Assembly: GCA_029856365.1 (NCBI GenBank)
Contig: JAHQWW010000040.1
Coordinates: forward strand, 1 to 27,571
DNA: 27,571 nt
Direction: 5' to 3'
Source: Candidatus Hodarchaeota archaeon
GTDB taxonomy: Archaea > Asgardarchaeota > Heimdallarchaeia > Hodarchaeales > Hodarchaeaceae
Shown here piece after piece: positions 6,229-15,284 of this stretch. Each line of letters opens with the position of its first letter. Position 1 is the stretch's first letter. Below the pieces are notes generated by a model that did not search any database, was not told the DNA's origin, and worked only from the letters and a program-made list of their open reading frames with translations. A program made the position numbers and the translations under genes.

Positions 6229-7332
6229 TCAGAGTTTAAAAGATAAAAATTTCTCCAGTGTTGGATTATTGAAATCATTATAAATTTTAATAGAAACTTT
6301 TGATTGAAAGGGACAACAAGCGATCTGGTCTAAGTGATCTATGTTTATACTTTGACTGAAAAAACCTAGTTGAATCGGCCGTATTACCGATAAAAAAACA
6401 TGTTTCTCAAGGATTTCCAGTGCTTCTAATGACATTATTTCATTATTATAGTTAAAACAAGTCGGAGATATAATAATTGAAATCTTTTCCTTGTCAGCAA
6501 CTTCTTGGCATATTTTCTCACAATATACTTGACAGAATAAACACAGGGAAGAATGATCTTTGAAGGAACCTAATAGGTCTTTTATTGACATAACAATAAA
6601 ATCTCTATTGAATTGTGATCGAATGTGATCTAAAAAAGTATTTTCAGATGATTTCCCCGTCCTGAAAAAAATAGGTATTACTTCCACTCCCCTCTTCTTC
6701 ATCAACCAAGCTGCTAAAATCGAGTTGAAATTAGGTCGAATTAGAGCAATTGCTTTTCCTTGAGATTGAGATGGGATTCCATCAATCCCTCTGAAAATTT
6801 CTGTATATATGAAGGCTAATGGTCCTCGAATATCTATAAAAATCTGAAAATCTGGGGTTTCTAGATTAACTTTAATGCCTTCAATCTGAGATGATAAAAT
6901 TTCTGTACCTAATTTGCGTGCAATATCCTTTGAGGAAAAAGGGTGATTTCCTTCTCTACGAACACGAACAGCAAAACTGCTATGAGGCATGATGATAGCA
7001 ACAGCATTCGACAATCCTCTAGAAATGATGGATTTTTCTGTAGCTTCAACAACAAGTGCTGGACTGACAGAAGAAATACCACTAAGCGAAGTAACAATGA
7101 GATGTGACAACTTATTGAGATTATTATTAGATTCAGAATAAATAAGCAAACGATCTCTGAATTCAAAGATTTTGAAAGTGGGATATTTTTCTAAAAAGCT
7201 CTCAATATTACGTTTTAGCTGACTCACCATACGTCGACGAGTTTGCCAGCTTTTTATCCCTAATTCGCCACCAATACGTACTAGTATAACTTGTTTATTT
7301 ATTAAAAATAAGTTATTTGAAAATGAAACCAT
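6229..7332 (-). CDS. THUMP-domain ThiI-like protein with degenerate PP-loop
   Basis: ILVRIGGELGIKS, SFAVRVRR, KVNLETPD, GIDGIP..SQGK..., AAWLMKKRG follow the ThiI architecture. The expected SGGxDS is replaced by RPNFNS. Confidence 0.8.
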   Translation of the reverse strand: MVSFSNNLFLINKQVILVRIGGELGIKSWQTRRRMVSQLKRNIESFLEKYPTFKIFEFRDRLLIYSESNNNLNKLSHLIVTSLSGISSVSPALVVEATEKSIISRGLSNAVAIIMPHSSFAVRVRREGNHPFSSKDIARKLGTEILSSQIEGIKVNLETPDFQIFIDIRGPLAFIYTEIFRGIDGIPSQSQGKAIALIRPNFNSILAAWLMKKRGVEVIPIFFRTGKSSENTFLDHIRSQFNRDFIVMSIKDLLGSFKDHSSLCLFCQVYCEKICQEVADKEKISIIISPTCFNYNNEIMSLEALEILEKHVFLSVIRPIQLGFFSQSINIDHLDQIACCPFQSKVSIKIYNDFNNPTLEKFLSFKL

Positions 7333-7424
7333 ATTGATGACTTTCTGGATTCCTAGTTCAAATCAAAGGAAGTTTCATGTATTTTGCTTTAATCCCATAT
7401 TTGGAAGGTCATTGAACCTCAAAA

Positions 7425-7499
7425 CAACGTGCGAGTCAGAGTAACTATAAGATTTCATCGCTCGGCTCATCCTTGTCAGGTTTCATCATTTCGCCGCTG
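7425..7499 (-). ncRNA. Dual-guide box C/D sRNA (predicted 23S rRNA 2'-O-methylation guide)
   Basis: Minus strand order: terminal stem CAGCGGCGA/TCGC(A)CGTTG; box C ATGATGA (7489-7483); guide AACCTGACAAGG; D' ATGA (7470-7467); C' GCGATGA (7461-7455); guide AATCTTATAGTTACT; box D CTGA (7439-7436). Both guides complement conserved LSU rRNA sequence. Confidence 0.85.
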
Positions 7500-7521
7500 G
7501 ATGACCTTGATATGGGATCTA

Positions 7522-7950
7522 TTACCCTTCATCTAGCTCTTCTAATTCTTCCTCTTCTTCTGTGAGCTCTTGGGAGGTTTTAATTAATTCTGCAGCATCA
7601 AACTGTTGTTCAAACCTCCGCCAAACAGCTGCTTTTAAATTTTTATTCAGTTTTTTGATGGCTTTTTCTACTACTTTTCTTGCTTCCTCACGGTCTTCAG
7701 GTAACTCAGTGAAACCCCATGTCGAAACAGGGGGAGCTTTGGGGTCTTTTTTAATCAAATAAACTAAACTTTCCTGTTGTTGAAACGCATAGAATTCAGG
7801 TTGAACAAGAGGGCAATCTATGTATCTACAAGTTCCTGTAATGGTGAAAAGATGATTACAACGAATTTTTGGAGATGTTGAAGCAGATTTAAATGCGCAT
7901 TGTCCATCAGCAAGGTATTTCCAGGTGGTAATTAACTGTGATGATTCCAT
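7522..7950 (-). CDS. mak16: Mak16/L28e-family ribosome biogenesis protein
   Basis: W...CAFK...C..H.FTITGTC....CPL...VYL.KK...W...EL..D.EEA, then an acidic tail, parallels eukaryotic Mak16 (IW...FCSFK...CRNEY..TGLC...SCPL...YL..K...LW..V.L..NYE.AL). Cys18/31/41/46 retained. Confidence 0.8.
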   Translation of the reverse strand: MESSQLITTWKYLADGQCAFKSASTSPKIRCNHLFTITGTCRYIDCPLVQPEFYAFQQQESLVYLIKKDPKAPPVSTWGFTELPEDREEARKVVEKAIKKLNKNLKAAVWRRFEQQFDAAELIKTSQELTEEEEELEELDEG

Positions 7951-8011: not shown

Positions 8012-8115
8012 AGCCGCTGGTGGGAATTCCATATACAATTCATCAGAATCTTATATCTTGAACCCACGGCCAACGGATTACAAGTCCGTCGCTCTACCAA
8101 CTAAGCCACAGCGGC
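8012..8115 (-). tRNA. tRNA-Thr(TGT) with a 31-nt T-loop intron at 59/60 (8026-8056)
   Basis: GCCGCTG/CAGCGGC acceptor, ACGGA-CTTGTAA-TCCGT anticodon arm, GTGGG-TTCAAG|T-CCCAC. BHB motif: TTCA/TGGA helix with AGA and ATT bulges. No encoded CCA. Confidence 0.9.
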
Positions 8116-8216: not shown

Positions 8217-8687
8217 TCATTGTAATTCAAGAAATCGCTGATTACGAATATAAAGGAGTTTTATTCTTTTCTTACGCGCCATCCTTTTTAATTTACGATC
8301 ATTAGTTGCAATAATCCCATTTCTTTCTTTTCCATAATGCAACAGTATAAAGTCAATATTCCGATGTTTGTACTCGGAAGGCCATTGTTGACAATATTTA
8401 TGCACAAATTCAATCGCTATGCGAGATTCCATTTGTTCTTTAGGATTTCCTTTCAGATGTATTTTCTTGAGTTCTGAATAAATCGGCTTAATAACAACTA
8501 ATACTCGATTTCCAGGAATAACTCGATCTAGTTCATATGATAAGTTAAAATTAGGAATCTGACCTAGAGCCATAAGAAAATTAGTGTCTAAAAATATCAA
8601 TGACTGCTGTTCACTTGAAAATGGAGGTTTTACTTCTGTCGTTGTTCTTTCCCGCCTTTGGTTACTCCCCATCCGATTAATCTCCAT
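8217..8687 (-). CDS. PIN-domain nuclease (Fcf1/Utp24-like); true start may be downstream
   Basis: FLDTNFLM, IYSEL, NIDFILL, IATNDRKL; conserved position behind aIF2-gamma. Confidence 0.85.
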   Translation of the reverse strand: MEINRMGSNQRRERTTTEVKPPFSSEQQSLIFLDTNFLMALGQIPNFNLSYELDRVIPGNRVLVVIKPIYSELKKIHLKGNPKEQMESRIAIEFVHKYCQQWPSEYKHRNIDFILLHYGKERNGIIATNDRKLKRMARKKRIKLLYIRNQRFLELQ

Positions 8688-9940
8688 CTACGATCAATCT
8701 GACGACTTATGGCTATACGAGTGCCTAAATCTGCACATACTGGAAGCCGAAGATCGACTTGAGTGCCCTTTTTACTAGTTTTTACTACTTTCCCTACGGT
8801 TTTAGCTGTACCCACACTTAACATGAGGTTTTCATTTAATTCAATAGCTTGAACCATTGTTTGAATTTCGCTGCCTACAACACGCTCAAGTAGGTGGCTA
8901 TCAAATTCCAACATATCCCAGATCGGTGGAAGCTCATCAGGATATCCGACGATTTGTCCGACGAGGGAATCACTTTTCGTGAGAGAGGGATCGATATTTG
9001 TTCCAATCCCAATAAGTCCCCCTGATAACGCTGTTTGTAGCTCGCCAAATCCTGATCGTAAGCTTACAATCTTTGTCTTAATGACCTGCCATTTACTGCC
9101 TTTTCGGTTCCCTGGCCGTATTTCAATCTCATCATCAATTGAAAATTTGCCCTGGACAATACTTCCTCCTACAACTCCTCCTTTCAGCTTAGTCGGGGAT
9201 TGTCCTGGTTTGTTTACATCGAAAGATCTTGCCACAAGCATTCTAGGAGAAAGACTCTCGTCTCGTTCTGGTGTTGGTAAGTGTTCCTCTATGTTCTGTA
9301 TTAACATATCAATGTTCGTATGGTGAATAGCACTAATAGGAATGATAGGAGAGTTCTTTGTACTAGTTTTCGAAATAAATTTCTTTAGATCTTTATAATT
9401 CTGAATAGCAGCCTTCTCAGAAACCAATTCGATTTTATTTTGGCAAAAAATCACCCTCTCCATCCCTATAATCTCCATGGCTGCAAGATGTTCACGAGTT
9501 TGAGGCATAGGAACCCTTTCATTGGCTGCAACGACGAGAAGTGCTCCATCCATTATACTTGCTCCAGATAACATTGTTGCCATTAATACTTCATGTCCAG
9601 GAGCGTCAACAAATGCGACCCGACGGAGGAGAATAGTTTCTTTACCGCAAACTGGACATTTTTTCTGAGTAGTATATTTAGCTGGGCTTTCACATTCTAG
9701 ACACTCACGAAACTCGGTTTCAGCATATCCCAATCGAATTGAGATTCCTCGACGAATTTCCTCACTATGAGTGTCAGGAAATTTTCCGGTCAATGCTTCT
9801 GTTAAAGTGGACTTTCCATGATCTACATGCCCAATCATCCCTATAGAGATCTCTGCTTGATTGGGATAGTCCGCTGGGGCCTTCTTCCTCTTTGGTGGGG
9901 CCTTCTTTTTTGCTGGGGGCCTCTTCTTCTTTGCTGGCAT
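8630..9940 (-). CDS. eif2g: Translation initiation factor 2 gamma subunit
   Basis: QAEISIGMIGHVDHGKST, RGISIRLGY, zinc knuckle CxxC..CxxC, DAPGHE, QNKIE, RWRLIGWG. Confidence 0.97.
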   Translation of the reverse strand: MPAKKKRPPAKKKAPPKRKKAPADYPNQAEISIGMIGHVDHGKSTLTEALTGKFPDTHSEEIRRGISIRLGYAETEFRECLECESPAKYTTQKKCPVCGKETILLRRVAFVDAPGHEVLMATMLSGASIMDGALLVVAANERVPMPQTREHLAAMEIIGMERVIFCQNKIELVSEKAAIQNYKDLKKFISKTSTKNSPIIPISAIHHTNIDMLIQNIEEHLPTPERDESLSPRMLVARSFDVNKPGQSPTKLKGGVVGGSIVQGKFSIDDEIEIRPGNRKGSKWQVIKTKIVSLRSGFGELQTALSGGLIGIGTNIDPSLTKSDSLVGQIVGYPDELPPIWDMLEFDSHLLERVVGSEIQTMVQAIELNENLMLSVGTAKTVGKVVKTSKKGTQVDLRLPVCADLGTRIAISRQIDRRWRLIGWGVTKGGKEQRQK

Positions 9941-15147: not shown

Positions 15148-15284
15148 AGGGATGTGGTCTAGCATGGTTATCGCCATATTTCTGGCAAATACGGTGGCTA
15201 GATGATTCCTGATTTGGGAATGACCAATTAGAGATTGGTCATCAGAACATCAGGTGGTCGTGGGTTCAAATCCCACCATCCCTA
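15148..15284 (+). tRNA. tRNA-Pro(TGG) with two introns (21/22: 15171-15202; 37/38: 15219-15248)
   Basis: AGGGATG/CATCCCT acceptor; CCTGA-TTTGGG|A-TCAGG; GTGGG-TTCAAAT-CCCAC. Anticodon intron has a strict BHB (TTTG/CAGA) and an ATGACCAAT/ATTGGTCAT hairpin. D-loop intron has a relaxed BHB (TGGT/GCTA). Confidence 0.9.

Follow-up and report, generated by a model that had tools for sequence, protein, structure and literature searches.

The stretch of DNA analysed here (the window, 27,571 nucleotides at its full length) corresponds to contig C33 in an assembly of 4.24 Mb and 204 contigs (83.6% complete), and its host is a mesophile-type MAG of the Hodarchaeales (Heimdallarchaeia, Asgard). On the minus strand a predicted box C/D sRNA of about 75 nt runs from 7499 to 7425, these coordinates being its exact ends, and it lies between two protein genes of the same strand. 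The upstream neighbour (7522-7950, minus) encodes a 142-aa Mak16/L28e-like protein that matches the eukaryote-type Pfam family Ribosomal_L28e with an E of 2.2e-6 and 28.7 bits, below the 33.2-bit cut-off, and its stop codon falls 22 nt before the sRNA. The downstream neighbour (6229-7332, minus) is a 367-aa protein of the THUMP/ThiI family, with the Pfam domains THUMP, ThiI_fer and ThiI, and its gene begins 92 nt beyond the sRNA end. No open reading frame of at least 40 aa overlaps the sRNA stretch and so the sRNA is intergenic. The Mak16-like neighbourhood also includes aIF2-gamma (8630-9940) and a PIN_9 protein (8217-8687).

Two interrupted tRNA genes were seen elsewhere in the window. A tRNA-Thr (UGU) at 8012-8115 (minus) carries an intron of about 31 nt in its T-loop; the Rfam match (29.3 bits) stops after the 5' 55 nt, ARAGORN overlooks the interrupted gene, and once the intron is removed ARAGORN calls a tRNA-Thr there. 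A 137-nt tRNA gene with one or more introns at 15148-15284 (plus) is found by Rfam at 41.5 bits and missed by default ARAGORN, the intron option of which gives a putative tRNA-Ala (GGC) with a 43-nt intron. Motifs resembling boxes C and D occur within the intron of this second gene.

Read 5' to 3' along the minus strand, the sRNA starts with the 5' strand of a terminal stem (7499-7491) that pairs with the 3' strand (7434-7425) over 9 bp at -12.7 kcal/mol, with A7430 as the sole bulge by duplex energy. The C box AUGAUGA (7489-7483) fits the RUGAUGA consensus and leads into a 12-nt D' guide (7482-7471) complementary over 11 bp to 23S helix 71 (E. coli positions 1941-1951). The D' box that follows is AUGA (7470-7467), the first base of which departs from the CUGA that is canonical for D and D' boxes. 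A 5-nt linker, read from the sequence between 7467 and 7461, then joins D' to the C' box GCGAUGA (7461-7455), and the first two nucleotides of this box pair with 7466-7465 to close a 3-nt loop (K-loop). The D-side spacer of 15 nt (7454-7440) contains, in the 11 nt beside the D box (7450-7440), a guide for the helix 69 loop, E. coli 1909-1919, and the D box itself reads CUGA (7439-7436). A UUUU run (7424-7421, minus) stands directly 3' of the terminal stem, and is likely to act as an archaeal terminator. By the N+5 rule the methylated nucleotide faces the fifth guide position from the D or D' box, and here the fifth guide nucleotide from the D' box is C7475, opposite G1945 (E. coli), and that from the D box is U7444, opposite A1913. 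A complete C, D', C', D order closed by a terminal stem had been put forward in the preliminary description and is indeed found, but with AUGA and not CUGA as its D' box and with a D spacer of 15 nt and not 12. The D' spacer has 12 nt, and the 15 nt of the D spacer (11 of them paired; 13-15 nt in other Asgard members) are to be set against the 10-12 nt usual for archaeal C/D guides (PMC7994747). The locus had also been called unannotated; no Rfam family reaches its gathering threshold on the window sRNA, and only generic weak C/D matches lie below it.

In the minimum-energy fold of 7391-7519 (minus), at -39.5 kcal/mol and a z of -1.96, the sRNA and its U-run lie inside an outer inverted repeat of 10 + 8 bp, the arms of which are 7519-7501 and 7412-7391. 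In read-through transcripts this repeat could serve as a precursor stem. One subclade alone has it in strong form (G000, G007, G009, G011 and G014); it is absent from the other congeners, and was rejected on that ground as a conserved processing signal of the family; as a BHB motif it was likewise rejected, the fold being without the 3-4-3 bulge-helix-bulge.

Of its own 23S rRNA the window's assembly holds only the 3' end (model positions 2721-2973), and pairing was therefore tested on two congeners, G004 and G016, the sequences of which are identical from helix 69 to helix 71. Both target 11-mers are present in these two 23S rRNAs, 32 nt apart, and each guide makes 11 Watson-Crick base pairs with them, the rRNA in this case being that of the congeners and not the host's own. 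The plus strand of the window holds both 11-mers in target sense (helix 69 and helix 71), as first quoted for the two guides. Five positions from the D' box one reaches the G of CCUUG, E. coli G1945, and five from the D box the second A of GUAAC, E. coli A1913, with the E. coli numbering checked against the alignment and ruler in the supplement of PMC4644070. A full-length 23S on contig C57 of G001 (L002) was not used: its helices 69 and 71 are unlike those of the genus and it is probably a contaminant from another archaeal lineage. In many MAGs of the genus the 23S is fragmented or missing. Among other Heimdallarchaeia (L003-L008) the 23S matches span 3.3-4.1 kb as compared with a model of 2,987 positions, which points to introns or insertions, and in a Lokiarchaeial 23S (L130, on G190:C87) some 30 extra nucleotides, which could be a small intron or an expansion, separate helix 69 from the AAGGUAGC segment and lie between both sRNA target sites.

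Within the genus one clear BLAST homologue per genome was found at the same locus in 21 of 21 other genomes, flanked in all 21 by the Mak16-like and ThiI-like genes, the protein identities of which fall to 53% (Mak16-like) and 45% (ThiI-like) among congeners. An ungapped alignment of the 22 genus sequences has 38 of its 82 columns invariant, every one of them in a box or a guide: the C and D boxes, the D' and D guides, the GA of D' and the AUGA of C'. Variation is seen in the stem and linker, in the nucleotide beside D' and in four spacer nucleotides beside C'. The UGAUGA of the C box and the CUGA of the D box are the same in 22 of 22 sequences, as are the D' guide apart from the nucleotide adjoining D' and the 11-nt helix 69 guide, with the four varying nucleotides on its C' side. 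The D' box is less constant, reading AUGA or UUGA in 20 of the 22 and being degenerate in G001 and G016. On the C' side 21 of 22 sequences preserve the GC/GC mini-stem, including one C-G to A-U change, next to an invariant AUGA. Every congener has a terminal stem of 6-11 bp, followed in most by T-runs. A count of stem covariation on the ungapped alignment gave 70% paired as against 64.5% in shuffles, a count blurred by register shifts, and was replaced by per-species duplex energies and by a model-based alignment of the phylum. The per-species energies average -12.0 kcal/mol for cognate 5' and 3' flanks and -7.7 kcal/mol for non-cognate ones, and the stem is preserved in the genus by compensating changes.

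Outside the genus a covariance model built on it (R1) recovered the sRNA in 2 of 2 cases for the order's sister family and in 9 of 12 for a second Heimdallarchaeial family, and a broader model (R2) found the family in 72 of the 150 sampled Asgard genomes, in 30 of 52 genera. In all 33 R2 matches inspected, down to an E of about 0.009, the helix 69 guide stands before the D box. A search for synteny outside the genus did not find the Mak16-like and ThiI-like neighbours beside the sRNA in other Asgard families. A lack of box conservation in relatives had been named as grounds for giving up the call, and the outcome, boxes and guides invariant across the genus (the D' box less so) together with a family traceable through the phylum by covariance model, supports the call. 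In an alignment of 47 members each of the 11 modelled pairs has changed on both sides in a compensatory way; 78% of stem cells are paired as compared with 45% in shuffles, none of 500 shuffles being as high, and the covariation score is 0.64 as compared with 0.18 in shuffles and at most 0.17 with the partners slid, figures to be read with the bias toward pairing of an alignment fitted to the model structure. Across the phylum 96% of the cells of the C' mini-stem are paired. Loose Rfam searches (E up to 1) with 14 other family members returned only generic sub-threshold C/D matches. The window sRNA is the founding example of an Asgard-wide C/D family. The second Heimdallarchaeial family of the R1 search, f4 (L088-L094, L096, L097 and L124), carries an extra, conserved hairpin of about 35 nt in the D'-C' interval. 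The C box there reads AUGAAGA and the D box is often CCGA, which would put an A/C pair where the kink-turn normally has U-U.

An exact-pattern scan for the dual guide was also run over one genome per prokaryotic GTDB species, requiring canonical boxes and the GUAACUAU form of helix 69. It returned 23 stretches, all from this genus but two, which are contigs of one Lokiarchaeial MAG. Such a scan is blind to Thermoproteota, where helix 69 differs; it covers the GUAACUAU-type lineages and is no proof of absence outside Asgard.

All 47 members carry the helix 69 guide, and about 40 of 47, counted by eye, carry a helix 71 guide of the G1945 type, a regex count having given 42 of 47 with two false matches among them. 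About seven of the 47 have another guide in place of the helix 71 one or have it displaced by 5 nt, and one lineage besides family f3 has a different D' guide. The comparison of guide with target was limited to genomes with both sRNA and 23S at hand, and in these helix 71 comes in five variants by lineage, GUCAGG, GUCGGA, GCCGGG, GCCGGA and GUCUAG, for which the D' guide carries the matching complement in most lineages, with 8-12 Watson-Crick pairs; the helix 71 guide of G028 (family f4) fits only one nucleotide out of register. At helix 69 an A at E. coli 1918 goes with a guide U, and most lineages with a G there have a guide C. In family f3 (sRNAs L137-L142; 23S L004, L006 and L007) the rRNA has C for G1910 and the guide G for C, and the D' guide is displaced by 5 nt on the same strand of the rRNA, which would aim it at the G1940 equivalent. 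The helix 71 site may be shifted by 1-2 nt (to U1946 or C1947) in G001, G016 and family f4, because the D' box there is degenerate or readable 1-2 nt earlier. Lokiarchaeial members have a canonical CUGA D' box in the same register, which supports G1945, and the invariance of the D' guide together with its covariation with helix 71 argues for selection on pairing.

Taken together, the RNA is very probably a box C/D guide sRNA of about 75 nt, encoded on the minus strand and directing methylation of the G1945 and A1913 equivalents. The call of a double guide is made because boxes, spacers and stem are all present, the stretch is intergenic, relatives keep it and its guides covary with their targets; this architecture and conservation, the structural as well as the guide-target covariation and the presence of the protein genes were all computed here. 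Those genes are found in the host genome, where fibrillarin (PF01269, 263.6 bits) adjoins Nop5 (PF01798, 218.8 bits) on contig C118 and L7Ae (PF01248, 96.1 bits) is encoded on contig C48. The sRNA would be transcribed from the minus strand, its terminal stem would bring box C up to box D in a kink-turn, and D' with C' would form the K-loop. L7Ae would bind both motifs and a Nop5 dimer with two fibrillarins would assemble on them. Pairing is predicted between the D' guide and the 5' strand of 23S helix 71 and between the D guide and the loop of helix 69, upon which fibrillarin would 2'-O-methylate the nucleotides facing the fifth guide position, G1945 and A1913, which lie at the subunit interface in the region of bridge B2a. 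The same RNA may also hold the 32-nt-spaced target segment during folding. The AUGA of the D' box and a D spacer that, at 15 nt, is longer than usual are points against this reading.

It is the D' box in particular that lends itself to another account, in which the RNA is a real C/D sRNP acting mainly as an rRNA folding chaperone, or in which only the D guide methylates (helix 69) and the D' module is catalytically weak. A D' box that is AUGA here and degenerate in several relatives would fit this, as would a helix 69 guide kept in every aligned member beside a helix 71 guide that is replaced or slid in some, and a chaperone role has been proposed by Dennis et al. for double guides with neighbouring targets (PMC4644070). 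However, the D' guide is invariant within the genus, most lineages have it covarying with helix 71, and the register is unchanged in members whose D' box is the canonical CUGA, and so a purely chaperone or D-only role seems unlikely; as both roles need pairing, chaperoning and methylation are in any case compatible with each other. Less probable still is a cis-acting kink-turn of the 3' end of the Mak16-like mRNA or of the 5' leader of the ThiI-like gene, through which L7Ae would regulate genes and which would have no guide function in trans. The sRNA does begin only 22 nt past the Mak16-like stop codon, an outer stem does span it in some species, and binding of L7Ae to mRNA kink-turns has been reported (PMC5539422). 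Yet other Asgard lineages have the family without these neighbours and still keep both rRNA guides, covarying with the rRNA, the outer stem is limited to a subclade, and a U-run comes after the terminal stem.

A chance gathering of short, A/T-rich motifs in intergenic DNA, with no functional RNA at all, would sit well enough with the lack of an Rfam match at threshold and with the occurrence of the 11-mers elsewhere in the genome (four others in helix 69 sense and one other in helix 71 sense), which is about the number estimated from base composition. It is the comparison with relatives that speaks against a chance origin: presence in all 21 congeners and in 72 of the 150 Asgard genomes, compensatory stems and guide-target covariation are inexplicable by chance, and of all the accounts weighed this one, which we regard as refuted, has the least to be said for it. 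A guide sRNA with two targets in the large subunit rRNA remains the preferred reading, and the further claim that a double-guide box C/D sRNA exists here in a lineage close to eukaryotes agrees with the Hodarchaeales host, the full architecture and the two guides.

The two sites have counterparts in eukaryotes. Yeast Am2256, guided by snR63, lies two nucleotides before Psi2258, which is E. coli 1915 (PMC2794176), and Gm2288, guided by snR75, lies 32 nt downstream of Am2256 (PMC11542601, PMC8817022). With the Psi2258 anchor and the 32-nt spacing, A1913 and G1945 equate to yeast Am2256 and Gm2288, as the preliminary description had said, the N+5 count giving the same pair. Yeast, human, plants, Ostreococcus and Dictyostelium all methylate both sites, and in every eukaryote listed with guides they are served by separate snoRNAs (PMC11542601, PMC8817022). 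The helix 69 site is Am3739 in human and Am2522 in Dictyostelium (PMC11542601, PMC8817022). The helix 71 site is Gm2278 (PMC8817022) or Gm2289 (PMC11542601) in Arabidopsis and Gm2554 in Dictyostelium, in the latter again 32 nt after the helix 69 site (PMC11542601, PMC8817022); the human Gm at the helix 71 site is listed in PMC11542601 and not in PMC8817022.

Like the D guide of the window sRNA, snR63, U46 (SNORD46) and Dictyostelium CD4 guide Am at the same nucleotide of the helix 69 loop; they are separate snoRNAs with no sequence or model similarity to the window sRNA beyond the guide, and so homology with them is not demonstrable. Like its D' guide, snR75, AtU15 and Dictyostelium CD14 guide Gm at the same helix 71 nucleotide, each as a snoRNA apart from the helix 69 guide and with no model match to the window sRNA. 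The Rfam families SNORD46/snR63 and SNORD15/snR75 gave no match to the window at E up to 10, nor to 14 other members at E up to 1. That snR63 or snR75 descends from the window RNA is possible, with the shared target as its sole support, and is beyond what sequence can show. To have called the RNA ancestor-like was too much, given that double guides are the archaeal norm, that Crenarchaeota have the same predicted targets and that Rfam offers no match. The two-site combination is on firmer ground than the preliminary description could know, being Asgard-wide, with guides that covary with their targets. The predicted targeting of the same sites in Crenarchaeota weakens the ancestor-like reading and the phylum-wide conservation of the two-site combination strengthens it. 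Since each site is a predicted target in Crenarchaeota, the link to eukaryotes could be a shared archaeal hotspot and not a specific inheritance. That Am2256 and Gm2288 were inherited from an Asgard ancestor along with their guide, the double-guide sRNA being the direct ancestor of U46/snR63 and of U15-type/snR75 and its two modules having later been split onto separate genes, is accordingly a doubtful proposition, if one with some chance of being right. The locus does define a phylum-conserved family with both guides in fixed order and co-evolving with their rRNA targets, and the family is a concrete case for asking which eukaryotic rRNA 2'-O-methylations predate eukaryotes, as well as a source of a covariance model for annotating guide RNAs in Asgard genomes.

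Box C/D sRNAs of archaea are reportedly the subject of Omer 2000 and Gaspin 2000, and the literature searched here contained no paper cataloguing the C/D guide RNAs of Asgard archaea. Like other archaeal box C/D sRNAs the window RNA runs C-guide-D'-C'-guide-D, with two guides, K-turn and K-loop and the N+5 rule, and as in the systems of PMC4644070 its genome encodes L7Ae, Nop5 and fibrillarin and its predicted targets fall in the hotspot of helices 68-71. Double guides are the archaeal norm, and helices 68, 69 and 71 are methylation hotspots (PMC4644070, PMC7994747). Unlike typical members it has a D spacer of 15 nt, an AUGA D' box and a stem of 9 bp (up to 11 bp in congeners), it matches none of the Rfam archaeal sR families at threshold, and its host is a mesophile-type Asgard MAG and not a hyperthermophile. 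Its closest counterparts in terms of target are in the supplement of PMC4644070, where the predicted target of S. acidocaldarius sR113 is alignment position A2179, equal to E. coli A1913 (printed as 'A21779' and read as A2179 by counting along the alignment), without a second predicted target, and where T. tenax sR30 and P. calidifontis sR54 have a predicted target at G2211, equal to E. coli G1945, paired with U2233. The predicted targets of the window sRNA are the same nucleotides, but in sR113, sR30 and sR54 the helix 69 and helix 71 sites are on different sRNAs whereas the Asgard family joins both in one RNA. Neither predicted site is then new for archaea, but none of the seven species of PMC4644070 has both served by a single RNA.
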